Source: an uncultured Acidobacteriota bacterium
Lineage (GTDB): Bacteria > Acidobacteriota > Polarisedimenticolia > J045
Length of the DNA: 32,307 nucleotides
Reading direction: 5' to 3'
Assembly (NCBI GenBank): GCA_964476985.1
Contig: CAYZDB010000002.1
Coordinates: 1-32,307 of the forward strand
The notes below the pieces were generated by a model. The model was not told the DNA's origin. It ran no database searches and was given only the letters and a program-made list of their open reading frames with translations. A program made the translations under genes and the position numbers. Shown here piece after piece: positions 5,793 through 22,199 of this stretch. Position 1 is the stretch's first letter; each line of letters begins with the position of its first letter.

Positions 5793-6357
5793 GCCGACCG
5801 GGGCGGCGCGGCCTGGCGGTGCTCGGCTGCCGGCCACGGGAAGGCGACCGAGGCAGCAGTCTGCGCTCCTGGTGGGATCAGGCCCATCGCCGGCGCGGCA
5901 CACCACGCGCGGGATGCACTCGGTACGCTGCTTCGGGGGTCGATGGTCCGGCGAATGTCGCAGACCCATTGAGTGCGGGAAAGGCTTGTCAAAGTGCGAC
6001 TCACTGGTCGCCGATCTGTTGCCGCGGACTGCCCTGCTGGCGCCGTCCTGTAAGTGTGACAACGTGTGAATCCTGCGAACTCGTCACGACGCTCCCCTTG
6101 CCTTTGCGATCCGGTCAGCGTCCAATCGTGACGAAACAAGGGGGCCGCGCACGACGGGACCGGCTGGCCGGCTCCGGTGAGAGGGTGTAGTGCTCACGGC
6201 GGAATCACCTCGTTGGTGGCCCTCGCGAGCATCCGCCAGGGGCTCCGCGTATCGCGATGAACCGAACGTTGGTCGGTCCGTCGGTCCGGAAGCGGCTCCG
6301 ACCCTTGCGGCGCCCGCCCACCGCGCGTTGCGGCCGGCCCAGTGCGACTTGGGCACT

Positions 6358-6410: not shown

Positions 6411-6503
6411 ATGAAGAACGACCACAATCGACGGCGCATCGAACGCGGCCACGCGTTCGGCCTGCTGCTGTTCCTCATGATCCTGCCCGTCTGCGCGTTC
6501 GCG
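6411..6503 (+). other. Predicted Sec signal peptide of the Rhs protein (AFA/VA cleavage); not a canonical lipobox
   Basis: A positively charged n-region (RRRIER) is followed by the hydrophobic core FGLLLFLMILPV and then CAFA-VAQ. LPVC does not fit the L-[AS]-[GA]-C lipobox. Confidence 0.6.
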
Positions 6504-9500
6504 GTCGCGCAGGAGTCACCGCCCCCTCCCGCGGCGCCGCCGGGGGGTGGAGAGGACCCTCCTGGCGGCGGCGGTACCGGTGGCGTGTCCTCCATCACGG
6601 ATCTCACCGTCTACGATCACCTCAGCCTCGTTGCGCGAGCGCCGGGAATCCCCGAGGGATCGATCTTCGCAGGATTCGAGAACTCCGAGTCGGTCCAGGC
6701 GTTCAGCGGGAACCTCCTCGTCACGCACCCGAGCAGCCCCTCGTTTCCACTCGACGGAGGCGGCAGCTTCAGCCTTTCGCGCAGCTACAACAGCTCGCGG
6801 ACCCTGGAGATCGCGAACAGGGGCGCCGACGATGTCTACAAGCGATTCGCGCACGGCCGAAGCTGGGTCGGATACGGTTGGACGATGCATCTGGGGCGGG
6901 TCTTCAAGCGCGCAAAGATGCCGGACCGCAAGGAGCAAGACCACCTGAATGAGCTCTACTGTTATCACGACCGGGAGTTCGTCTTCGAGGATGGGGCGGG
7001 TACGCAAACGGTGTTTAACGAGAAGGAGCCGGACCCGGTGCGGTCTGCCGTTCAAGAACGCCCGATTCTCAAGGTTCGGTTCTTTCGGAAGCCAGGACAG
7101 GAATGCGAGTTCGGAAGTCGCCGGCCGCTCTGGTGCGATACCCCCAACCGCTCGTCGCTGCCCGAATGCGACCACTTCGACAATGACTGCGAGACGACGA
7201 CGGACGGCACGGCCCACTATGAGGTCACGCTGGAAGATGGCTCGATCCTTCGGCTGGAGAAGCGGGTCGACGAAGTTACGAACGACCTGGGCTTCATCAA
7301 GAACGCCGACCGCAGCGGCTGGTACACCACGCGCATCACGTTCCTCTCCGGCGCGGCGCTTCGAGTGGCGTATCACGACAGCACGGCGTTTCCCGAAGCC
7401 ATCTACAAGGTGCAGTCGGAACGTGATCAGACAGTCACGATCCAAACGACTCTGTGCGCGTCCGACGCCCATTGCTGCGCACCCGGCGCAGCCTGCAGCG
7501 CCGGCTCGGGCCTTACGGGCCTCTTGAAGACCGTCACGGCAACGGGACCAGGCGGCCAGACGGTCACCTACGAATACTCATATGAAGCCATGTCTCTCAA
7601 CGATGTCGGCGGACCGACGACTGTTCCCGTGCTGCGGCAGGTCAAGCTACCGGTGGTCGGAGGACAGAGCGCCGGGTCGATCCAGTACACCTACCGACCC
7701 AGCTATCAGCCGGAGGGCGCCGGGCCGGGCGAGCCGGGGACGGGTCCGCTCCTCGAGCGCCTGATCTATCCGCTGAATGGCGAGGCGAAGTACGAATACG
7801 GCGCGTGGTACTGCGGTCCCAAGAAGTCCGGCGCACCGTCGGAAACCTACGAGTGCTATCAGCCCGGGTCGCGCCGGTGCTTTGGAGTGACCGGTCGCAC
7901 CCTCTTCCCCGCCGGCAGCGGTGGCACCGAACCACCGGCTCGCGCCGATTGGCGCTGGGACCGGGACATCTCCTACACGGGGCTCTGCCCGGCGAGCAGC
8001 GGTAACTCATGTCAACCCGCCTTCGCAGAGAACAACCGATTCGTGATGCGCGGTCCTGACGGACGGACGACAATCAGCGAGTTCGAGTCACCCGTTGCAT
8101 GCGGTTTGGGAATCAACAAACTCGTGGGACGCATCAAGGCGGAGGAGTCCTATGACGGCGATGGCACGGCAGTGGCCACCCGCCTGCGTCGTGTCACCCA
8201 CGCCTACATGTATCCGCTGGAGCAGGCCGTCGAGACGGAGTTCTACGACGGACCCTCGGCCTGCGACGATGGGGTGGCAGCCAGTCCCGCACGGATGCGC
8301 ACCGAGCGCTTCGAGACGAGCGAGTGGGGCGAGTGGAACCTGACGGTCGTGAGCGGCGACTACCTGCCGGCAGAGGTCAAGCGCCGGTCGTACGTCGCGC
8401 ACGACGATCCGAAGACCATGCCCCCGTCCCGGCTCGAGAAGCATGTCGTGGGCCGGTTCGGGCGGGCCTATGTGGAAGAAGGCCGTTTCCAAGATCCTGG
8501 ACGCTACGAAGTGATGTACTGGCACGAGGGAGATCTCGGCTACGGCGGTGAATACAAGGGCCGACTGCTGCAGGTGGCGGCCGTCGCGTCCTATCAGACC
8601 GTCGGAACGACCATCGACACGACGGCCAATCCTCCGGCCGTGCAGACACCGGAGCCCCCGAGCACTCCGGAATCGCCCCCGAACCTGCGTTCAGTGCTCA
8701 GTTACGACGCCTCGAAGGGCAATCTGGCCCAAGTCGTGTTTTCCGGAGGAGACTCGAACGCGACGTACACCGTCGACTACACCTGGGACCAGGCGATGGC
8801 CAAGACGATGAAGCTGACGGCCTTGACCTACAACAGCCGCGAGATCGTCCCCGATCGAGGAGCGGTCTCGGCAGCGATCGATCCGAACGGCCTCCGCACC
8901 GATTTCGGCTGGGACGCCCTGGGCCGGATCAAGAGCCTCACCCCGCCCGGACCCGAGTACGCGACGCGAGTGGCCTATCCGTCGTTGCTCGAGACCCGCG
9001 TCATCCGTTCGCCAGGCGCGGAAACCGCGCCCACGACCGATCCGGAGCAGGTGTACTCCGACCAGCGTTACGACGGTCTCGGCCGGACAATCGAGCGACG
9101 TAAGACGGTGCAGGGCTGGACGGCGCTGCAGGTCGTCCGGTATGACGCTCTCGGCCGCGAGATCTTCGTCTCCGAGTGGCTGACCCAGTCCGAATTCGAC
9201 ACGGCACCGAAGATCGTGTGGCAAGACGCCATGGATCCGGATGGAACGGGCCCACGAAGTTGGAGCCACAAGGTCGTCGACATCCCGACGAAGGACGGGC
9301 GCCCGTGGGGCACCGTGACCTACTACGGCGTGCCGTCGGCGACGGCACCCGACAACCCGCTTCGCGCCATCCCCGACGGCCTCGGCCGGGTCCGTCGCGT
9401 CGTTCAGGCCGACGGCTCGATCGTCGACACCGAGTACTGCGGCCCGCACGAGACGGTGACCGTGCACGGGGTGGACCGCAACGGCGATGGCGTTGCAGCG

Positions 9501-12500
9501 GAGACGTCCATCACGAAGTACTGGAAGGATGGGCTCGGCCGGCTGGTACTGGTCGACACCGACGTCCGGGCCGGAGGCGCGGCCGGGGACGGGGCCGACG
9601 CGGTCTACCGCTTCGACCCACGCGGCAAGGTCCGTGCCGTCCACCTAGTGTCGCAGCTTCCGGCGGACGCTTTCAACCAGTGGCGAAATCCGGACTGGAC
9701 TCCGGCGAATCCCCAGACGCGGACGTTCGAATACGACGCGCTCGGCCGGTTGCGGCGGGCCACGAACCCGGAGAAGGGTCTGGAGGAGTTCCATGCCTAC
9801 GACGTCTGGGGCAACCTCCTGGCCTGGACGGACGAGCTGGGACGCCAGCGCGGGTACCACTTCCGCAACACGTTCGACGGCGCAGGCCGACTGACGAAGA
9901 CGGAGCGCTGGCGGGCGGCCTACGGGACCGCGGGGACGCCAAGCGACGTGGAGCGTCTCGGCAGCAACGGGACCTTCGAGGGCACATGGCCCGGGGCCTG
10001 GGTCGAAGGGACGATCGACGGCTCGAACAACTTCAAGCCAGCGACGACCTCGTGGGAGGCCGTAGCCTACGGAGCAACGTCCTGCTTCAAGGCGCCCCCC
10101 GTCGGGGGCGGAATGCGCGGCCTGCACCTCGGCGGCACGGCGTGCACGTACGACGCCGCCGACCGCGGGCGGGAAGTGGCCCGAATCGCGGTCACGGGCG
10201 TGACCCGAGACGACCTGCTCAGTTTCAAGTACTGGCGGCAGGTGCGGGAGCAGAGCGGCGGCTCGCGCGACGCCCTCGAGGTCTGGGTGACGCGGCAGTC
10301 GCCGGACGGCGCTTCGATCCTGCCGCGGCGCGTGGTGTTCAGGATGTCGGAATCGCACGCATCCTACGCGAAGTGGATCCAGAGCCCCGGCGTCGCGCCG
10401 GGGGACTTCTACAGTCCCGCGGACTGGCCGGAAGGGACGACGCGCGATCTCTTCGTCTACTTCGTGTTCGAGAAGGGGGACGACGTCAGCTCCGGTCTCG
10501 GGCTGGGGGTGCTGATCGACGACGTCACGCTCGGCCGCAAGGGGGTGGAGACACTGGAACAGACCACCTACGACACCGACGTCTGCAGCGGGAGCGAGGG
10601 GGGCGACGCCTGCCTCGAGGGCGCCAGCACGGTCAATGCGTACAAGGACAAACCGGCCAAGGTGGCGTCGTACCAAGATGGCCGGAAGGTGCTGGAGCGG
10701 CGCTTCGTGTACCGCGGCCTGAACGGCCGCCTCTCGGGCGTGCGTACGCTGTTCGACTGGCGCGGGATGGCGCGGGACAATCATCCCGAGGACTGGACGA
10801 GCGTGGTCTGGAACGCGACCTGGAACAGCCACGGCCTGCCCGCCGACCTGGTGGCGCCTTATGCGGCGGCGGCCGGCAAGCGACGCTACGCGCAGCTCTA
10901 CTACGGCACGCTGCTGCGCCGGATCACGAGCGGCACGACGCCGCTGCTGGTCGCGGAGGACGGGCTGGACGGCGTCTACTACGACGCCGCCGGCGAGCCG
11001 ACCGAGTTGCGCTTCGCCAACGGTGCGGGGACGGCGATCGCGCGGGACGCCCAGCACCGGCCGCGGTCGTACGCGGTCTGGGGCTCGCCGACCACCGAGA
11101 GGCCCTTCTGGGCGAGCGGGAACTACACCTTCGACGGCGCGGGGAACATCCTCGCGATCGGGACGCAGCGCTTCGGCTACGACGGCGCCTCGCGGCTGAC
11201 GCACGCCGAGCTGCTGCCGCAGGCGCAATCCCCGACGACGCTGACCTTCGACGTCGTGAACTGGACCTACGATCTCTACGGGAACATGACCGGGCAGACG
11301 CTCGTCGGCAGCTCGGCGGCCACCCCCCCGCCCCTGACGTTCCAGCACACCTACGGTGCCGCCGGCCCCGGCAACCACAACCAGGTCACGACGTCCGGCT
11401 TCGCCTACGACGGCAACGGCAACACCCGTCGCTTCACCGGCCAACTCGGCCCCGCGGACGCCGTCGGCGCACTCTGGGACTCCCAGAACCGCCTGACGGC
11501 GTTCGTCCAGGGCGACCCCTGGGCCGGCAGCGCACCCGGCGAGACGTACGCCTACGACGCCGACGGCTACCGCTTCCTGCGGCTCTCGCTCGACAACACG
11601 GGCAAGGCGCTGCTGTCGGTGCGCGATGGCGAGGGCCGGACGCTGTCGGAGTTCGTGGACGAGCCGAGCGGCGGGCTGAAGCTGGTGCGGGACTTCGTCT
11701 ACGGGGTCGGCCAGCTGCTGGTCGAGCGCCAGGTGACCAGCGCGCCGCCGCAGATGCTGCTGGGCAGCCCGCTGGTCTCCGGCGGGAGCTATCACCTGAC
11801 GGTGACCGACGGCAGCGCGGCGCCGAGCTACGAGCTGGACATCCGCACCGCGTCCGGCTTCCAGAACCGCCTGACCGGCCTGCAGCGCGACGCGGCCCAG
11901 CAGCTCCACGTGCCGGAGAGCGCCTTGTCCCCCGGCGAGACGAACGTCCTGCGGCTGCGGGCCGAGGGCGAGCCGGGGACCGGCTACTCGGTGCCGGTCT
12001 CGCTGCTGTACGATCCGAGCGTGACGCCCTCCTCCCCGAACCAGATCCGCGCGCTGGGGGTCTCGCGCAACGGGACCGACCTGGTGCTGCGCTGGGCGCT
12101 CTTGACCGAGAACGGCAAGCAGACCAGGGTGAGCTTCCGGCGGGCCGACACCGGGGCGACCTACGTGCTGACGCCGCAAGCGCTGGCGTCGTCGATCAAG
12201 TCGTACACGCTCTCGTCGCAGGCTCTGGCCTCGCCGTGCGGGGACTTCCTGCTGAGCCAGGTGCTGCAGTCCAACGAGACCGGCCCGACCCCGCCGCTCC
12301 GGAACCCGAGCAGCCAGAGCGGGACGCAGGGGACGGAGATCGATCCCTGCGACGACCCGCCGCCCGACCCAGCTCCGGGCCCGCGCTTCACCAACGCCTA
12401 CCACCACCGCGATCACCTGGGCACGCTGCGCAACGTAACCGGCGACGGGGGCTACCTGGCCGCGGCCTACGACTGGTACCCGTACGGGACGCGGATGAGA

Positions 12501-13250
12501 ACGGGCCTCGCCGGCTCCGCCTCGGACAGCCGGCGGGTGTTCACGGGGCACGAGCGGGATCTGGCGACGGGGCTGGATTACATGATGGCGAGGTACTACG
12601 GACCAAGCCTCGCCCGCTTCCTGAGCACCGATCCCGGAGACGACACCTACCTCGACGCCCCGCAGAGCTGGAGCGAGTATTCCTACGTTCGCGATCGTCC
12701 CATCGGCGCGAACGACCCGACGGGCAGATTCACGGATTGGGGACTGACCCGCGAGTTCCGCGTGAGCCCGCCCGCGGTGGCGGCGACAGGTGGCACCCCC
12801 CAGGCCGCCTCTCAGACGATCGAGCAGATTGCCAAGTCGACGTCGTCGGTGGCGAATACGGTCGGTTGCGGAGCACTACTTGGGGCGGTCGTCGCGGCAA
12901 TCGTTCCGGGGGGACAAGCAGCGGTTCCTCCCCTCCTGTCAGTCGCTGGCACGATGGGGACGATCTCGCTCGGCAGTGATGTCGCCGCGGCCGCAGCGGT
13001 CCCGTCAACCGATAACGTCAACACCGTCATTGCCGATGTGGTGACGACAGCAGCGGTGGCGGGTGCGCTCAGGGGCGCGGAAGCACAGATGAGCCCCGGC
13101 TCCCGGGTGGCTGTCGAGACAGCTGCGATTCCTGCTGCGACGGCAGTGACGAGCATCGCGGAATCTGTGGAGGATGCCGTCGACGACCGAGGGAAGACCG
13201 ACCCTGCTGCTCCCCAGCGGGAACCGGCAGACAAGGAACAGAAGAAGTAG
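6411..13250 (+). CDS. Rhs/YD-repeat polymorphic toxin (2279 aa) with N-terminal Sec-type signal peptide, RHS core and a novel C-terminal toxin tip
   Basis: ATG 6411 directly follows AGGAGGGGAG (6401-6410). Signal-like N-terminus: MKNDHNRRRIERGHAFGLLLFLMILPVCAFA/VAQ. Shell-start motif: FSLSRSYNS...GYGWTMHLG. There are at least ten YD repeats, including FGWDALGR ~8904, YDGLGR ~9067, YDALGR ~9139, YEYDALGRL ~9727, FDGAGRL ~9880, YTFDGAGN ~11125, FGYDGASRL ~11175, FAYDGNGN ~11400 and YAYDADGY ~11551. RHS-associated core: YHHRDHLGTLR..WYPYGTR..FTGHERDLATGLDYMMARYY..YSYVRDRPIGANDPTGRF, ending at 12731. Confidence 0.95.
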   Translation: MKNDHNRRRIERGHAFGLLLFLMILPVCAFAVAQESPPPPAAPPGGGEDPPGGGGTGGVSSITDLTVYDHLSLVARAPGIPEGSIFAGFENSESVQAFSGNLLVTHPSSPSFPLDGGGSFSLSRSYNSSRTLEIANRGADDVYKRFAHGRSWVGYGWTMHLGRVFKRAKMPDRKEQDHLNELYCYHDREFVFEDGAGTQTVFNEKEPDPVRSAVQERPILKVRFFRKPGQECEFGSRRPLWCDTPNRSSLPECDHFDNDCETTTDGTAHYEVTLEDGSILRLEKRVDEVTNDLGFIKNADRSGWYTTRITFLSGAALRVAYHDSTAFPEAIYKVQSERDQTVTIQTTLCASDAHCCAPGAACSAGSGLTGLLKTVTATGPGGQTVTYEYSYEAMSLNDVGGPTTVPVLRQVKLPVVGGQSAGSIQYTYRPSYQPEGAGPGEPGTGPLLERLIYPLNGEAKYEYGAWYCGPKKSGAPSETYECYQPGSRRCFGVTGRTLFPAGSGGTEPPARADWRWDRDISYTGLCPASSGNSCQPAFAENNRFVMRGPDGRTTISEFESPVACGLGINKLVGRIKAEESYDGDGTAVATRLRRVTHAYMYPLEQAVETEFYDGPSACDDGVAASPARMRTERFETSEWGEWNLTVVSGDYLPAEVKRRSYVAHDDPKTMPPSRLEKHVVGRFGRAYVEEGRFQDPGRYEVMYWHEGDLGYGGEYKGRLLQVAAVASYQTVGTTIDTTANPPAVQTPEPPSTPESPPNLRSVLSYDASKGNLAQVVFSGGDSNATYTVDYTWDQAMAKTMKLTALTYNSREIVPDRGAVSAAIDPNGLRTDFGWDALGRIKSLTPPGPEYATRVAYPSLLETRVIRSPGAETAPTTDPEQVYSDQRYDGLGRTIERRKTVQGWTALQVVRYDALGREIFVSEWLTQSEFDTAPKIVWQDAMDPDGTGPRSWSHKVVDIPTKDGRPWGTVTYYGVPSATAPDNPLRAIPDGLGRVRRVVQADGSIVDTEYCGPHETVTVHGVDRNGDGVAAETSITKYWKDGLGRLVLVDTDVRAGGAAGDGADAVYRFDPRGKVRAVHLVSQLPADAFNQWRNPDWTPANPQTRTFEYDALGRLRRATNPEKGLEEFHAYDVWGNLLAWTDELGRQRGYHFRNTFDGAGRLTKTERWRAAYGTAGTPSDVERLGSNGTFEGTWPGAWVEGTIDGSNNFKPATTSWEAVAYGATSCFKAPPVGGGMRGLHLGGTACTYDAADRGREVARIAVTGVTRDDLLSFKYWRQVREQSGGSRDALEVWVTRQSPDGASILPRRVVFRMSESHASYAKWIQSPGVAPGDFYSPADWPEGTTRDLFVYFVFEKGDDVSSGLGLGVLIDDVTLGRKGVETLEQTTYDTDVCSGSEGGDACLEGASTVNAYKDKPAKVASYQDGRKVLERRFVYRGLNGRLSGVRTLFDWRGMARDNHPEDWTSVVWNATWNSHGLPADLVAPYAAAAGKRRYAQLYYGTLLRRITSGTTPLLVAEDGLDGVYYDAAGEPTELRFANGAGTAIARDAQHRPRSYAVWGSPTTERPFWASGNYTFDGAGNILAIGTQRFGYDGASRLTHAELLPQAQSPTTLTFDVVNWTYDLYGNMTGQTLVGSSAATPPPLTFQHTYGAAGPGNHNQVTTSGFAYDGNGNTRRFTGQLGPADAVGALWDSQNRLTAFVQGDPWAGSAPGETYAYDADGYRFLRLSLDNTGKALLSVRDGEGRTLSEFVDEPSGGLKLVRDFVYGVGQLLVERQVTSAPPQMLLGSPLVSGGSYHLTVTDGSAAPSYELDIRTASGFQNRLTGLQRDAAQQLHVPESALSPGETNVLRLRAEGEPGTGYSVPVSLLYDPSVTPSSPNQIRALGVSRNGTDLVLRWALLTENGKQTRVSFRRADTGATYVLTPQALASSIKSYTLSSQALASPCGDFLLSQVLQSNETGPTPPLRNPSSQSGTQGTEIDPCDDPPPDPAPGPRFTNAYHHRDHLGTLRNVTGDGGYLAAAYDWYPYGTRMRTGLAGSASDSRRVFTGHERDLATGLDYMMARYYGPSLARFLSTDPGDDTYLDAPQSWSEYSYVRDRPIGANDPTGRFTDWGLTREFRVSPPAVAATGGTPQAASQTIEQIAKSTSSVANTVGCGALLGAVVAAIVPGGQAAVPPLLSVAGTMGTISLGSDVAAAAAVPSTDNVNTVIADVVTTAAVAGALRGAEAQMSPGSRVAVETAAIPAATAVTSIAESVEDAVDDRGKTDPAAPQREPADKEQKK
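11549..12599 (+). repeat. Direct repeat copy A (inside main rhs), partner of 13656-14631
   Basis: Line-by-line alignment: offset 2107 before a 75-nt indel and 2032 after it. 11813-12499 is identical to 13845-14531 at all 687 positions. Confidence 0.95.
12732..13247 (+). other. Rhs C-terminal toxin tip 1 (172 aa), Ala/Val/Gly-rich, unassignable; candidate membrane-active toxin
   Basis: This is the sequence after DPTGRF: TDWGLTREF..VGCGALLGAVVAAIVPGGQAAVPPLLSVAGTMGTISLG..VIADVVTTAAVAGAL..VAVETAAIPAATAVTSIA..KEQKK. By my count it has 37 Ala and about 40% Ala+Val+Gly, with no His, no Tyr and one Cys. I see no recognisable nuclease, deaminase or ART motif. Confidence 0.6.
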
Positions 13251-13277
13251 CGTGATCATCGGCCGGAGTGCGACCAG

Positions 13278-13475
13278 ATGAGAGCTTGGATCCAGGTTCT
13301 TCTGCTCATTGCGCTTGGTGCTGCGGCCTTGTGCCTCGCCGCCCGCATTCGGGTACCTCCTGATGAGCCCGGGTCAGTGCTGTACCCGACCTATCGGTAC
13401 CTTAGGCTGATGTTGCTCGTCTCCGGGGGGGGTGCTCTCTTAGTGGCGGTGCGACTTGTGGCATTCCCTCCGTGA
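13278..13475 (+). CDS. 65-aa two-TM membrane protein; candidate cognate immunity protein for toxin tip 1
   Basis: ATG 13278 lies 9 nt after GGAG (13265-13268) and 27 nt after the rhs stop. Two hydrophobic helices: WIQVLLLIALGAAALCLAA and LRLMLLVSGGGALLVAVRLVAF. Position immediately 3' of a polymorphic toxin tip is the classical immunity location. Confidence 0.6.
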   Translation: MRAWIQVLLLIALGAAALCLAARIRVPPDEPGSVLYPTYRYLRLMLLVSGGGALLVAVRLVAFPP

Positions 13476-13518
13476 AGGCGACCAAAGAAGTTAGACGGCG
13501 TCAGGACGGTCAGCGATC

Positions 13519-15330
13519 TTGGCTTCGCTCGGTGACGCCGGCCATGTGCACCTCCGGCTTGCGTCCGGGCTACAGCGAACAGGCCGCATGTTCGATTTGA
13601 TTTCCGCCGGGCTGCGAATCCCACCGGCTTTGGCAAGGGGGCACCGTGCACAACCCGCCTACGACGCCGACGGCTACCGCTTCCTGCGGCTTTCGCTCGA
13701 CAAAGCCGGCAAGGCGCTGCTGTCGGTGCGCGACTGGGAGGGCCGGAGGCTGTCGGAGTTCGTGGACGAGCCCATCGGCGGGCTGAAGCTGGTGCAGGAC
13801 TTCGTCTGCGGGGTCGGCCAGCAGCTGATCGAGCGCCAGGTGACCAGCGCGGCGCCGAGCTACGAGCTGGACATCCGCACCGCGTCCGGCTTCCAGAACC
13901 GCCTGACCGGCCTGCAGCGCGACGCGGCCCAGCAGCTCCACGTGCCGGAGAGCGCCTTGTCCCCCGGCGAGACGAACGTCCTGCGGCTGCGGGCCGAGGG
14001 CGAGCCGGGGACCGGCTACTCGGTGCCGGTCTCGCTGCTGTACGATCCGAGCGTGACGCCCTCCTCCCCGAACCAGATCCGCGCGCTGGGGGTCTCGCGC
14101 AACGGGACCGACCTGGTGCTGCGCTGGGCGCTCTTGACCGAGAACGGCAAGCAGACCAGGGTGAGCTTCCGGCGGGCCGACACCGGGGCGACCTACGTGC
14201 TGACGCCGCAAGCGCTGGCGTCGTCGATCAAGTCGTACACGCTCTCGTCGCAGGCTCTGGCCTCGCCGTGCGGGGACTTCCTGCTGAGCCAGGTGCTGCA
14301 GTCCAACGAGACCGGCCCGACCCCGCCGCTCCGGAACCCGAGCAGCCAGAGCGGGACGCAGGGGACGGAGATCGATCCCTGCGACGACCCGCCGCCCGAC
14401 CCAGCTCCGGGCCCGCGCTTCACCAACGCCTACCACCACCGCGATCACCTGGGCACGCTGCGCAACGTAACCGGCGACGGGGGCTACCTGGCCGCGGCCT
14501 ACGACTGGTACCCGTACGGGACGCGGATGAGGACGGGGGTCGCCGGCTCCGCGTTGGACAGCCGGAGGGTGTTCACGGGGCACGAGCGGGACCTGGCGAC
14601 GGGGCTGGATTACATGATGGCGAGGTACTACTCGTCACCGGGGGGGACGTTCCTGTCGGTGGATCCCGGGGAGGACACGGATCTCGATGATCCCCAATCC
14701 TGGAATGCCTACAGCTACGTTCGTCGCGACCCGCTCGGTGGGAACGATCCTGACGGCAGATTCGGGAATCTCCTGGTCGGCTTCGTCGTCGGGGCGGCTG
14801 TCGAGGCCGGGTCGCAAGTCGTGGCGGGGATGTCGGAAGGAAAGGGCCTCATCGATTCCGTAAAGGGCATCGAGGGGAACAAGGTCCTCCTCAGTGCTGC
14901 GGTCGGAGGGGTGACTTCGGGCGTGAGCGCAATCCGCGCGATTGGATTGGCCGGCCGGCTCGCCGTGGAGGCCGCTGGCAATGTCGCCGAGGGAGCTCTG
15001 CATGCCCAAGTTGATGATGCCTCCTACGGGTCTGCGGAGGTCGTCGACGACGCCATCGTCGGAGCTGTAGCAGGAGTAGTCGGAGAGGGCACCGAACGCC
15101 TGACGCACGCCGTCGCACAACAGACGGACGCGGCGAAAAGCCTCGCCCACGACGCGAAGCGCCTGGAGAACATCGCCGACAAGGGGCGCCCGCGGGCGGC
15201 CCAGGAGTTGCGCGCACAGCAAGCCAAGGAGAAGGCGGCAAGCTACGGCTCGAAGCTCGCATCGGTCACCGGCGCAGCGGCGAGCAACCTAACGAGCGAG
15301 GCTGCAGGGAACAAGAAGAAACAACCGTGA
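13519..15330 (+). CDS. Orphan Rhs C-terminal cassette (last YD repeat + Ig-like insert + RHS core + alternative toxin tip); no signal peptide or shell, start uncertain, possibly silent
   Basis: The track ORF starts at TTG 13519, with an in-frame ATG at 13588; neither has a convincing SD. From 13656 it is homologous to 11549 onward of the main rhs (AYDADGYRFLRLSLD...). It has the same core, YHHRDHLGTLR..FTGHERDLATGLDYMMARYY, then diverges: SSPGGTFLSVDPGEDTDLDDPQSWNAYSYVRRDPLGGNDPDGRF ends at 14763. Confidence 0.7.
   Translation: MASLGDAGHVHLRLASGLQRTGRMFDLISAGLRIPPALARGHRAQPAYDADGYRFLRLSLDKAGKALLSVRDWEGRRLSEFVDEPIGGLKLVQDFVCGVGQQLIERQVTSAAPSYELDIRTASGFQNRLTGLQRDAAQQLHVPESALSPGETNVLRLRAEGEPGTGYSVPVSLLYDPSVTPSSPNQIRALGVSRNGTDLVLRWALLTENGKQTRVSFRRADTGATYVLTPQALASSIKSYTLSSQALASPCGDFLLSQVLQSNETGPTPPLRNPSSQSGTQGTEIDPCDDPPPDPAPGPRFTNAYHHRDHLGTLRNVTGDGGYLAAAYDWYPYGTRMRTGVAGSALDSRRVFTGHERDLATGLDYMMARYYSSPGGTFLSVDPGEDTDLDDPQSWNAYSYVRRDPLGGNDPDGRFGNLLVGFVVGAAVEAGSQVVAGMSEGKGLIDSVKGIEGNKVLLSAAVGGVTSGVSAIRAIGLAGRLAVEAAGNVAEGALHAQVDDASYGSAEVVDDAIVGAVAGVVGEGTERLTHAVAQQTDAAKSLAHDAKRLENIADKGRPRAAQELRAQQAKEKAASYGSKLASVTGAAASNLTSEAAGNKKKQP
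13656..14631 (+). repeat. Direct repeat copy B (5' part of the orphan cassette)
   Basis: Same alignment as copy A. The identical antisense track ORFs 12161..12394 and 14193..14426 independently confirm the 2032-nt offset. Confidence 0.95.
14764..15327 (+). other. Orphan toxin tip 2 (188 aa), glycine-zipper-like hydrophobic N-part plus charged helical tail; candidate membrane-active toxin
   Basis: GNLLVGFVVGAAVEAGSQVVAG..LLSAAVGGVTSGVSAIRAIGLAG..AIVGAVAGVVGEG.., then AKSLAHDAKRLENIADKGRPRAAQELRAQQAKEKAASYG. Small-xxx-small spacing recurs. There is no recognisable enzymatic motif and no sequence similarity to tip 1. Confidence 0.55.
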
Positions 15331-15986
15331 GGCGGTCTCGCGAGGTAGAAGGGCAAGGAGGCGACTCCTCGCAAGCGCGGCCGTGGCCCTTGCGTTGGCT
15401 CGGCTCGCTGCTGTTGGTGAGTGTGGTCCATATCGCAACACCGGCCCTCCTCGCGGAGGCGGGCTCTGCGGAATACGCACGGAGTCGCGATCAGCTGTTC
15501 GTTGTGTGCTTCATCGCATTCCTCCTATTCATCGTTCTCGTCTCATACCTACGGGGGCGAAGACGCGAGTTCTCGCAAACGCGGCGGTGGGACCTGCGCT
15601 GGATCGGCCCACTGCTGCTGGCGGGTTTGGTTTACCTCGCGACAAGGGCGCATCTCGCGGAGGCGGGATCCGCGGATTACGCCCGACGTCACGGCCGGCT
15701 CTTCACAGTGTGTCTGCTCGCGTTTCTCCTATTCGTAGTCCGAGTCAGTACTCGCCCGGCCCCCTCGTTGATCAAGGCGGCTCGTAGCGCCGACCAGAAG
15801 TCGGAGTACATCCGCGGTGGGTGGATGTCGATCGACCTGGCCTTGCTCCTGTCTGCGGCCGCGGCAGTATTCGTGCTGGATTGGAGTGGCTGGCGCGACT
15901 ATCTCGTACAGATCGGCGTGGTCTCGGCGCTCATAATTGTTCGCATCGTTGTCAGTCTCGTCCAACGGGCGTTGGGAAAGAAGTGA
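15327..15986 (+). CDS. 219-aa, about 6-TM membrane protein with internal tandem duplication; candidate immunity protein for orphan tip 2
   Basis: GTG 15327 overlaps the orphan stop (GTGA). Hydrophobic helices: WLGSLLLVSVVHIATPALLA, LFVVCFIAFLLFIVLVSYL, WIGPLLLAGLVYLATRAHLA, LFTVCLLAFLLFVVRVS, IDLALLLSAAAAVFVLDW, IGVVSALIIVRIVVSLV. A sampled block is low in GC (15481-15540: 31/60). The start codon is uncertain. Confidence 0.65.
   Translation: MRRSREVEGQGGDSSQARPWPLRWLGSLLLVSVVHIATPALLAEAGSAEYARSRDQLFVVCFIAFLLFIVLVSYLRGRRREFSQTRRWDLRWIGPLLLAGLVYLATRAHLAEAGSADYARRHGRLFTVCLLAFLLFVVRVSTRPAPSLIKAARSADQKSEYIRGGWMSIDLALLLSAAAAVFVLDWSGWRDYLVQIGVVSALIIVRIVVSLVQRALGKK
15378..15785 (+). repeat. Tandem 204-nt (68-codon) duplication inside the candidate immunity gene
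   Basis: Unit 1: RPWPLRWLGSLLLVSVVHIATPALLAEAGSAEYARSRDQLFVVCFIAFLLFIVLVS. Unit 2: RRWDLRWIGPLLLAGLVYLATRAHLAEAGSADYARRHGRLFTVCLLAFLLFVVRVS. The Trp codons sit at 15384 and 15588. Similarity is visible at DNA level too (ctcgcggaggcgggctctgcggaatacgc vs ctcgcggaggcgggatccgcggattacgc). Confidence 0.85.
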
Positions 15987-21785: not shown

Positions 21786-22199
21786 ATGCGGAACACGATG
21801 GCGGTCCTGCTGGTCCTGGGGGCGCTGCTGCTCGCCGGCGGGGCCACGCTGGCCGCGGACAGCCCGATCGACGCGGTGAAGAAGGCCTGCAACACGGAGC
21901 TCACCACCTTCTGCAAGGGCGTGAAGCCGGGGGACGGTCGCGTCCTCGCCTGCCTCTACGCCTTCGAAGACCAGGTCTCCGACAAGTGCACCTACGCGGT
22001 CTACAACGCGGCCGCCGAGCTCGAGCAGGCCGTCAACGCCCTGAAGTTCGTGGCCGCGCAGTGCAAGGACGATCTCCTGAAGTACTGCGGCGACGTCCAG
22101 GTCGGCGAGGGGCGCGGCCTCGCCTGTCTCGAGAAGAACGAGAAGACCGTGAGCCAGGCCTGCAAGGACGCGCTGAAGCAGACCGGTCTGAAGAAGTAG
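21786..22199 (+). CDS. Secreted cysteine-rich repeat protein (two copies of a C-x7-C-x(n)-G-x-G-R-x3-CL-x(n)-C unit)
   Basis: ATG 21786 follows GAGGAG. Signal peptide: AVLLVLGALLLAGGATLAA. Repeats: CNTELTTFCKGVKPGDGRVLACLYAFEDQVSDKC and CKDDLLKYCGDVQVGEGRGLACLEKNEKTVSQAC. This is the pattern of Pfam 'cysteine rich repeat' (PF00839-like) bacterial proteins. Confidence 0.8.
   Translation: MRNTMAVLLVLGALLLAGGATLAADSPIDAVKKACNTELTTFCKGVKPGDGRVLACLYAFEDQVSDKCTYAVYNAAAELEQAVNALKFVAAQCKDDLLKYCGDVQVGEGRGLACLEKNEKTVSQACKDALKQTGLKK

Follow-up and report, generated by a model that had tools for sequence, protein, structure and literature searches.

The DNA analysed here, called the window below, is a stretch of 32,307 nt with a GC content of 70.9% from an uncultured Acidobacteriota bacterium (contig CAYZDB010000002.1), and the element in question is the 3′ end of an Rhs/YD-repeat polymorphic toxin gene on its forward strand (6411..13250, +) together with the small open reading frame (ORF) that follows it. 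The end of the Rhs gene codes for a C-terminal domain designated toxin tip 1 (12732..13250, +), and the small ORF is a candidate immunity gene coding for a two-helix membrane protein (13278..13475, +). Judging from its sequence and from analogous systems, it is rather likely that the region 12732-13475 represents the variable toxin/immunity cassette of a Sec-exported Acidobacteriota Rhs protein, in which a pore-forming or ionophoric toxin would be blocked in the membrane by its two-helix partner.

The Rhs frame is open from a GTG at position 6342 to position 13250, which amounts to 2302 codons from this first GTG, and the probable start codon is ATG 6411, giving a protein of 2279 aa; the residue numbers assigned to the tip in the first-pass annotation of this DNA (2108-2279) agree with a count from this ATG. 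The ORF matches the Pfam family RHS_repeat in three stretches (E = 5e-14), the NCBIfam family YD_repeat_2x and, at aa 2046-2128 of the ORF, the NCBIfam model Rhs_assc_core (TIGR03696, E = 5e-14), and the GC content at third codon positions (GC3) in this frame is 0.75-0.99. The central RHS/YD repeats are, by their sequence, the shell that characterizes an Rhs polymorphic toxin system. The N-terminus, which begins with Met24 in the count from the GTG, consists of a basic n-region, a hydrophobic core and an AxA site, and looks like a Sec-type signal peptide (6411..6503, +; MKNDHNRRRIERGHAFGLLLFLMILPVCAFA as read off the translation, with the putative cut before VAQ) and not like a PAAR domain or another type VI secretion system (T6SS) adaptor.

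The repeats are followed by the Rhs-associated core with the C-terminal plug and the aspartyl-protease region (12477..12731, +), which was delimited by TIGR03696, by motif positions and by an alignment with the TccC3, YenC2 and SGS1 cores, and which ends in DPTGRF (12714-12731). The protease motif of Rhs proteins has been defined as DPXGX18DPXG, with cleavage taking place after DPxGL (PMC10684867). The motif found here (12630-12731) is a variant, DPGD-x24-DPTG, whose second DPxG element is present as DPTG, while DPGD stands in the place of the first and the two Asp residues are spaced 28 residues apart, compared with the canonical 22 in the enterobacterial DPXGX18DPXG and 23 in Tse5 (DPXGX19DPXG, Asp1141 to Asp1164). 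The same variant is common to the main Rhs gene, to an orphan module located downstream and to two related proteins from other loci, P0001 and P0002, which are described below.

Toxin tip 1 comprises 172 codons after DPTGRF (12732-13247) and a TAG stop codon. It is rich in Ala, Val, Gly and Thr, with 37 Ala, 21 Val and 15 Gly residues making up 42.4% of the domain, and contains no His or Tyr and only one Cys, one Trp and one Phe, which exactly reproduces the counts of the first-pass annotation (37 Ala, about 40% Ala, Val and Gly, no His or Tyr, one Cys). The four hydrophobic stretches quoted there were likewise all found in the tip, and its remark that the domain has no catalytic-looking residues was borne out, with neither an enzymatic fold nor a catalytic-looking motif being detected. 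Ala accounts for 21.5% of tip 1 compared to 8.9% of the remaining Rhs protein, while the GC content over tip 1 and its partner is 0.615-0.67 compared to 0.69-0.755 in the flanks and the body of the gene, so the Ala-rich composition is not an artefact of GC content, as Ala is more frequent in the tip even though its DNA is less GC-rich. A frame remaining open over 172 codons was observed in 1% of shuffles.

The partner ORF begins 27 nt past the stop codon of the tip and is preceded by a Shine-Dalgarno-like GGAG (13265..13268, +) 9 nt upstream of its ATG, as read from the sequence. It codes for 65 aa with two predicted transmembrane helices (approximately aa 4-22 and 43-62) connected by a basic loop; Kyte-Doolittle values over 19-residue windows exceed 1.6 in two blocks, with window starts at residues 1-9 and 42-47, so the two-helix ORF announced in the first-pass annotation is indeed present at this distance. 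The loop of about 20 residues carries the conserved motif P-x-[YD]-[DE]-P-x-S-V. The protein matches no family in Pfam or NCBIfam. DNA as GC-rich as this often has long open frames. Since a 65-codon ORF at this place is open in 23% of shuffles, the small ORF is not significant when taken alone, and the case for a real gene is made by its conservation at two other loci and by a near-identical contig from an independent sequencing run.

A search with the tip using phmmer over 1.84 billion representative proteins returned only two relatives, namely P0001 from locus L001 (E = 1e-26, 48% identity) and P0002 from locus L002 (E = 1e-13, 41% identity), and these together with the tip of the window make up the three-member family considered below. 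Both relatives are proteins of about 230 aa which start with MLARYY within the Rhs core and can be aligned along the whole length of the tip. Their contigs come from metagenomes of the Joint Genome Institute (JGI), and on each of them the tip is followed by a small ORF (L001:8705-8887, 60 aa; L002:873-1082, 69 aa) whose product is homologous to the 65-aa protein of the window, with 55% and 41% identity, respectively. The three partners share the motif G-A-A-x-L in helix 1, the loop motif given above and G-x-G-x-L-x-x-A-x-R in helix 2. In a six-frame comparison the annotated frames scored best for both genes in all three locus pairs, with the best cross-locus scores in the sense frame being 2e-27, 1e-15 and 1e-16 for the toxin and 1e-17, 5e-5 and 6e-5 for the partner. 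Antisense coding of the tip region was considered and rejected, as the antisense frames align at 1.6e-11, which is far weaker than 2e-27 in the sense frame; that they align across loci at all is to be expected with Ala-rich codons. The unusual composition is also kept throughout the family, with 22-25% Ala, no Tyr and not more than one His, Cys or Trp each in all three members.

In addition, the 932-bp Logan contig L083 from an independent run (SRR31761332) corresponds to positions 12570-13501 of the window with one mismatch, and the 65-aa partner was called on it as an identical protein (P0003), so the sequence of the window is not an assembly artefact. This contig was the only addition made by searches for further members with the tip profile, with the partner profile, in genome contigs, in viral contigs and by tblastn in plasmids. 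In a word-indexed search the tip had no match among 5.8 billion protein clusters, and neither a protein profile nor a 26-base degenerate DNA pattern (validated on the window, L001, L002 and L083) found anything in metagenome contigs, which is a weak null since that collection evidently does not include the two JGI contigs. The extent of the tip family found is thus three loci among about 15 billion proteins, and the window holds the sole full-length Rhs gene found with this tip. The candidate toxin/immunity pair put forward in the first-pass annotation is therefore a genuine conserved cassette, with both homologues of the tip having a two-helix partner of 60-69 aa downstream, while the toxin and immunity roles themselves are suggested by composition, hydropathy and gene order.

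Such conservation bears directly on another explanation, according to which the tip is a decayed or inert Ala-rich low-complexity tail of the Rhs protein and the downstream ORF codes for a small membrane protein that plays no part in protection. The extreme rarity of the family, the 5′-truncated orphan state of both homologues, the low confidence of the AlphaFold models described below and the 23% of shuffles with an open 65-codon ORF would all be compatible with it. Nevertheless, we regard this explanation as quite unlikely, because the tip shows 41-48% identity across three loci in the sense frame with long invariant blocks and an invariant Pro-Gly turn, and because the partner is conserved along with it at 41-55%; neutral decay would not keep both genes. 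Moreover, the tip of the window is fused in frame to an intact Rhs protein of 2279 aa with a signal peptide and a core.

The best-conserved block of the tip is a hydrophobic helical hairpin at tip aa 40-82 (12849..12977, +; VANTVGCGALLGAVVAAIV-PGGQ-AAVPPLLSVAGTMGTISLGS), recognized by alignment, hydropathy and charge, in which two apolar segments are separated by an invariant Pro-Gly turn. Its consensus is G-x-[GA]-A-L-[LI]-x-A-x-x-A-A-x-x-P-G-x-x-x-A-V-x-P-L-L-x-[VI]-A-G-T-x-G-x-x-S, with the invariant columns G45, A48, L49, A52, A55, A56, P59, G60, A64, V65, P67, L68, L69, A72, G73, T74, G76 and S79, and a DNA pattern for the block has a single match in the window with 0 expected. The helix segments aa 40-58 and 63-82 are uncharged in the window and in L002, and L001 has a single Lys in the turn. 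The mean hydrophobicity of the hairpin is 0.5-0.68 with a hydrophobic moment near nil; for the segment 40-58 the mean hydrophobicity is 0.54-0.68, and the summed cost on the Hessa scale, at about 2 kcal/mol, puts it on the borderline for a transmembrane helix. Ladders of the small-xxx-small type made up of Ala, Gly and Ser run along positions 47/48-51/52-55/56 and 72/73-76-79, the former, as a [GAS]xxx[GAS]xxx[GAS] pattern, being the only conserved zipper-like feature. The hairpin is preceded by a short polar amphipathic segment (aa 23-39, hydrophobic moment up to 0.46) and followed by two more Ala-rich, weakly charged helices, the second of which holds an invariant I-P-A-A, and by a Pro-rich tail finishing in Lys residues.

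AlphaFold predicted only helices for tip 1, both from the single sequence and from the three-sequence alignment, with a mean predicted local distance difference test score (pLDDT) of 43 and a predicted template modelling score (pTM) of 0.3-0.39. The model obtained with the alignment has four long helices at tip aa 23-57, 61-89, 93-119 and 122-153, although with a pLDDT of 43 and a pTM of 0.39 it is too uncertain for the helices to be counted. The structural comparison proposed in the first-pass annotation gave no fold match, since a Foldseek search of the tip model against the PDB found nothing below E = 0.5 and the best matches were designed or generic helical bundles, which is weak evidence because the models are of low confidence.

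That the tip cannot be assigned to a known family, as the first-pass annotation had noted, was confirmed with Pfam, NCBIfam, PDB sequences, the word-indexed search and Foldseek. Pfam showed no family for any of the three tip members at E up to 10, including the colicin pore-forming domain, and NCBIfam gave nothing credible on the Rhs ORF beyond the Rhs core and repeats, a match to uL16 (E = 7.7e-4; 19 bits, where the cutoff is 284) being discarded as chance. No match in the tip was found among PDB chain sequences either with phmmer or with the family profile, whose best hit was at chance level (E = 1.6). Neither of the two phmmer matches among the 1.84 billion representatives is Tse5-like, i.e. 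homologous to the Tse5 C-terminal fragment (Tse5-CT, Ile1169-Gln1317), and no Tse5 was found in the PDB profile search, where the presence of a Tse5 chain in the PDB set was not verified.

The Rhs core, by comparison, does have relatives of known structure. The best solved-structure sequence matches of the region 12399-12731 are the mosquito salivary proteins SGS4 and SGS1 (9on3 and 8fjp; E = 8e-8 and 2e-7), which outrank the bacterial TccC3 and YenC2. The tails of the SGS proteins past the core are likewise Gly/Ala-rich and hydrophobic. The alignment with SGS1/SGS4 runs into the tip with low accuracy, and this extension was rejected as a compositional likeness of hydrophobic tails and not homology.

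The lack of database matches leaves room for an enzymatic toxin with a fold that has escaped recognition, acting for instance on a lipid-linked or periplasmic substrate, with the partner binding the enzyme at the membrane surface, and the tip does contain polar residues invariant in all three members (E31, T37, S38, D83, S92, N95, T98 and D102). We consider this very unlikely, however, given that the domain is almost devoid of His, Tyr, Cys and Trp, is 42% Ala/Val/Gly, is predicted to be helical only and includes a long uncharged hairpin, that the partner has no soluble domain able to occlude an active site, and that no enzymatic toxin family or fold was matched in Pfam, NCBIfam, the PDB or Foldseek. 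According to the best reading of the sequence, tip 1 is the founding member of a new and very rare sequence family of Rhs tips with a membrane partner.

From the sequence and from the better-known systems compared below we infer the following course of cleavage, delivery, insertion, pore formation, depolarisation and protection. The Rhs protein would be exported by Sec with the tip held inside the Rhs shell, and the aspartyl-protease plug of the shell would cut next to DPTGRF. The released fragment probably starts at the Phe residue (nt 12729), one residue before the start assumed in the first-pass annotation, since the register of Tse5 and TccC3 puts the cut after the residue following Gly (PMC10684867). 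On delivery to a competitor the hairpin aa 40-82 would enter the cytoplasmic membrane first, followed by the flanking Ala-rich helices, and several copies packing along the small-residue ladders would form a pore or ionophore which would collapse the membrane potential. In the producer, the 65-aa partner would reside in the inner membrane and block the toxin there through contacts between their helices inside the bilayer. Since the partners have only 60-69 aa, two helices and no soluble domain, neutralisation would have to occur in or at the bilayer. The loop is the most basic region in all three partners (net +2 to +3), and by the positive-inside rule it would be cytoplasmic with both termini outside.

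Several points weigh against a pore-forming toxin of this kind. Only the segment aa 40-58 comes near classical transmembrane hydrophobicity, the second arm of the hairpin costing 5-7 kcal/mol and the other segments 5-8 kcal/mol on the summed Hessa scale, and a strict GxxxGxxxG glycine zipper is not conserved in the three tip members, which have two, two and no GxxxG motifs, never at the same position. Pore formation is not backed by a confident structural model (pLDDT 43). The toxin in both L001 and L002 is a 5′-truncated orphan fragment, so these copies may be inactive, and with three sequences only, conservation and co-variation carry little statistical weight. No VgrG, PAAR, Hcp, T6SS, CdiB or TcA-like gene was found among the scanned ORFs of the 32-kb window. 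Finally, small membrane partners also accompany toxins which hit membrane proteins and do not form pores.

This last point leads to an alternative in which the tip is a membrane-targeted toxin that inserts into the inner membrane but forms no pore there. Its victim would be one particular integral membrane protein or complex (a transporter, a respiratory complex or a lipid carrier pathway, for example), with the partner competing for or shielding the toxin surface. It draws on the same evidence as pore formation, namely the hydrophobic hairpin, the two-helix partner and the lack of an enzymatic fold, and it is also favoured by the requirement of the ionophores used in contact-dependent growth inhibition (CDI) for AcrB, SecY, YciB, PuuP/PlaP or DtpA/B (PMC11630599) and, in the accessible excerpts of a further report, by that of a Bacteroidales pore-forming T6SS toxin for the Rnf complex (PMC12718326). 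In the published cases, however, such membrane proteins act as insertion receptors and the toxic act is still depolarisation, and no sequence feature of the tip indicates a particular target, so we hold this alternative to be unlikely.

Rhs tips accompanied by an immunity partner in the membrane are an already familiar kind of system, the closest example being Tse5-CT/Tsi5 of Pseudomonas aeruginosa (PA2684/PA2683.1). The C-terminal 149 aa of the Rhs protein Tse5 form a fragment of no predicted function that includes transmembrane and amphipathic helices; this fragment inserts spontaneously into lipid layers, where it makes ion-selective pores, and is neutralised by Tsi5, which has two predicted transmembrane regions (PMC9637101). 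It is freed by the aspartyl-protease plug of the Rhs shell after a DPxG-Leu motif (PMC10684867). Shared with the system described here are an Rhs shell with an aspartyl-protease DPxG motif at its end, a tip of about 150-170 aa with hydrophobic and amphipathic helices and no predicted enzymatic function, and, coded for by the gene immediately downstream, a small partner for which two transmembrane helices are predicted, Tsi5 being an inner-membrane protein. In contrast, the N-terminus of Tse5 is PAAR-like and the protein is mounted on VgrG4 for delivery by the T6SS, whereas the Rhs protein of the window has a Sec signal peptide with no T6SS genes in the window.

The CDI ionophores of the CdiA-CT EC93 family are helical bundles whose immunity proteins (CdiI) are very hydrophobic two-helix hairpins of 72-100 aa predicted to contact the toxin helices (PMC11630599). 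The position at the C-terminus of a polymorphic toxin, the helical domain and the tiny two-helix partner are common to both, and the CDI toxin/immunity pairs are highly polymorphic. The CDI carrier, however, is CdiA with a VENN demarcation and not Rhs, the only motif shared by these ionophores (GxxxGxxxG in helix alpha-4) is not conserved in the tip 1 family, a separate N-terminal entry domain such as CDI toxins have is not evident in tip 1, and the five-helix membrane-spanning bundle compares with four long helices in a model of tip 1 with a pLDDT of 43. CdiI termini are predicted to be cytoplasmic, whereas the basic loop of the shorter partners described here (60-69 aa) suggests the reverse orientation. 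Tip 1 is set apart from the CDI ionophores by the carrier and the motif as given in their published description. The analogy with Tse5-CT and the CDI ionophores drawn in the first-pass annotation fits the published descriptions of both (PMC9637101, PMC11630599), although a membrane partner, which was treated there as a hallmark of pore-formers, is suggestive of one and not diagnostic.

Small C-terminal domains rich in small residues and membrane immunity proteins are also shared by the glycine-zipper toxins TelE, EsxX, TspA, Ssp6 and Tse4 of type VII secretion systems (T7SS) and T6SS, which depolarise target cells according to the accessible excerpts of the reports on them (PMC10434224, PMC12744356, PMC7456083, PMC12169545). 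As far as these excerpts go, their carriers are LXG/T7SS proteins or they are stand-alone T6SS effectors, unlike the Rhs protein of the window. In the phmmer search no sequence similarity was found between them and tip 1, which has an Ala-based small-xxx-small ladder instead of a Gly zipper.

Pore-forming colicins (A, B, N, E1, Ia and K) have at their centre a hydrophobic helical hairpin, uncharged and about 40 residues long, which inserts into the inner membrane, and the immunity proteins that block them are integral to the membrane. A water-compatible helical domain with such a hairpin and a membrane partner making intramembrane helix contacts would be common to them and tip 1, while the colicin pore domain is larger (about 200 aa, 10 helices), its immunity proteins have 3-4 transmembrane helices and receptor and translocation domains stand in place of the Rhs shell. 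By analogy, tip 1 probably works much as Tse5, the CDI ionophores and the colicins do, but in the comparisons that could be run it did not group with any of them.

A more far-reaching possibility, to be taken as tentative and rather doubtful, is that the tip is a new minimal ion-conducting toxin, a four-helix 'Ala-coil' bundle unrelated to the colicin, CdiA-CT, Tse5 and glycine-zipper folds, which inserts itself from outside, is delivered by a Sec-exported, T6SS-independent Rhs protein and is countered by an immunity hairpin oriented opposite to CdiI. If the tip is indeed a pore-former or ionophore, a family novel in sequence would join the few toxins known to be delivered by Rhs proteins and to depolarise membranes, the main characterised example being Tse5. 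The toxin would then stem from a soil phylum that has received little study and be carried by an Rhs protein seemingly using Sec export instead of the T6SS. With a toxin of about 170 aa and a hairpin of 65 aa, it would also be a compact pair for studying entry into the bilayer and its blocking. Uncharacterised hydrophobic Rhs tips are common, and unclassified ones with membrane partners are to be expected in the diversity of polymorphic toxins, so the pair opens no long-standing question; what makes it interesting is that its sequence is new, that the host belongs to the Acidobacteriota, that the Rhs protein seems to be independent of the T6SS and that the pair is very small, and the surprise is modest.

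The surroundings of the cassette are those of an exchangeable Rhs tip. About 100 nt past the partner ORF there is a terminator-like hairpin with a T-rich tail (13576..13594, +), which is a weak consensus match and one of four such sites in the scanned region compared to 1.3 expected, and behind it lies an orphan rhs C-terminal module (13656..15330, +), recognized by DNA self-comparison and Rhs_assc_core, in which a copy of 11549-12599 is joined to an unrelated tip 2. The similarity between 11549-12599 and 13656-14631 amounts to 93% over 189 nt and 99.1% over 787 nt, with 75 nt matching 11738-11812 missing from the orphan module, and it ends about 115 nt ahead of the DPxG motif. GC3, which is 0.92-0.99 in the core common to both copies, drops to 0.64-0.79 over tip 1 and its partner. 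A break in similarity accompanied by a drop in GC content and GC3 is, as a sequence pattern, typical of exchangeable Rhs tips, and a variable tip with a downstream cognate partner and an orphan module is, on these grounds, the arrangement of an Rhs system. The contig L083 is confined to the interval from one copy of the rhs core to the other (the first ends at 12599 and the second resumes at 13656) and has its 5′ end in the first of them, and its ends are consistent with an assembler break around the rhs core repeat.

Tip 2 (14764-15327) is Ala/Gly/Val-rich with four GxxxG motifs and a Lys-rich end. It is followed by an ORF coding for a multi-pass membrane protein of 219 aa (15327..15986, +; from the translation), which is probably its immunity gene, so that the two probably make up a second membrane toxin/immunity pair. 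This ORF contains an internal tandem duplication (15351-15542 and 15555-15746, 72% identity, 204-nt spacing), each unit of which codes for two helices in about 68 aa, close to the size of the tip 1 partner. A relationship between the two tips was rejected after comparing them, as was one between the two partners (hhalign). A Pro-rich stretch followed by a Lys-rich terminus is present in all four tips (13193-13247 and 15300-15327 in the window, L001 and L002), the termini being ..KEQKK, ..TEKKK, ..DKKETCP and, for tip 2, ..GNKKKQP.

In L001 (7220-9314), the orphan cassette is located right after a nucleotidyltransferase/HEPN toxin-antitoxin pair, with a few extra core residues (RDRETELDY) directly after the stop codon of the HEPN gene, and is followed by another small ORF for a two-helix membrane protein (9036-9314) with weak Pfam matches to 2TM and DUF6320, possibly a further orphan immunity gene. 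In L002 (125-5135), the cassette is located at the contig end and is followed by three transposase/integrase genes (DDE_Tnp_ISAZ013, DDE_3 and rve), which suggests that the region is mobile or rearranged.

The identified neighbours in the window code for a cytochrome bd/c fusion, a threonine aldolase, an enolase-superfamily enzyme, a GAF protein and a 2-oxoacid:ferredoxin oxidoreductase. The alpha subunit of the latter is 94-97% identical to proteins from metagenome-assembled genomes of uncultured Acidobacteriota, and the host is accordingly a diderm soil bacterium. A small ORF at 21786-22199, unrelated to the tip 1 pair, codes for Cys-rich repeats (Pfam Cys_rich_FGFR, E = 6e-13).

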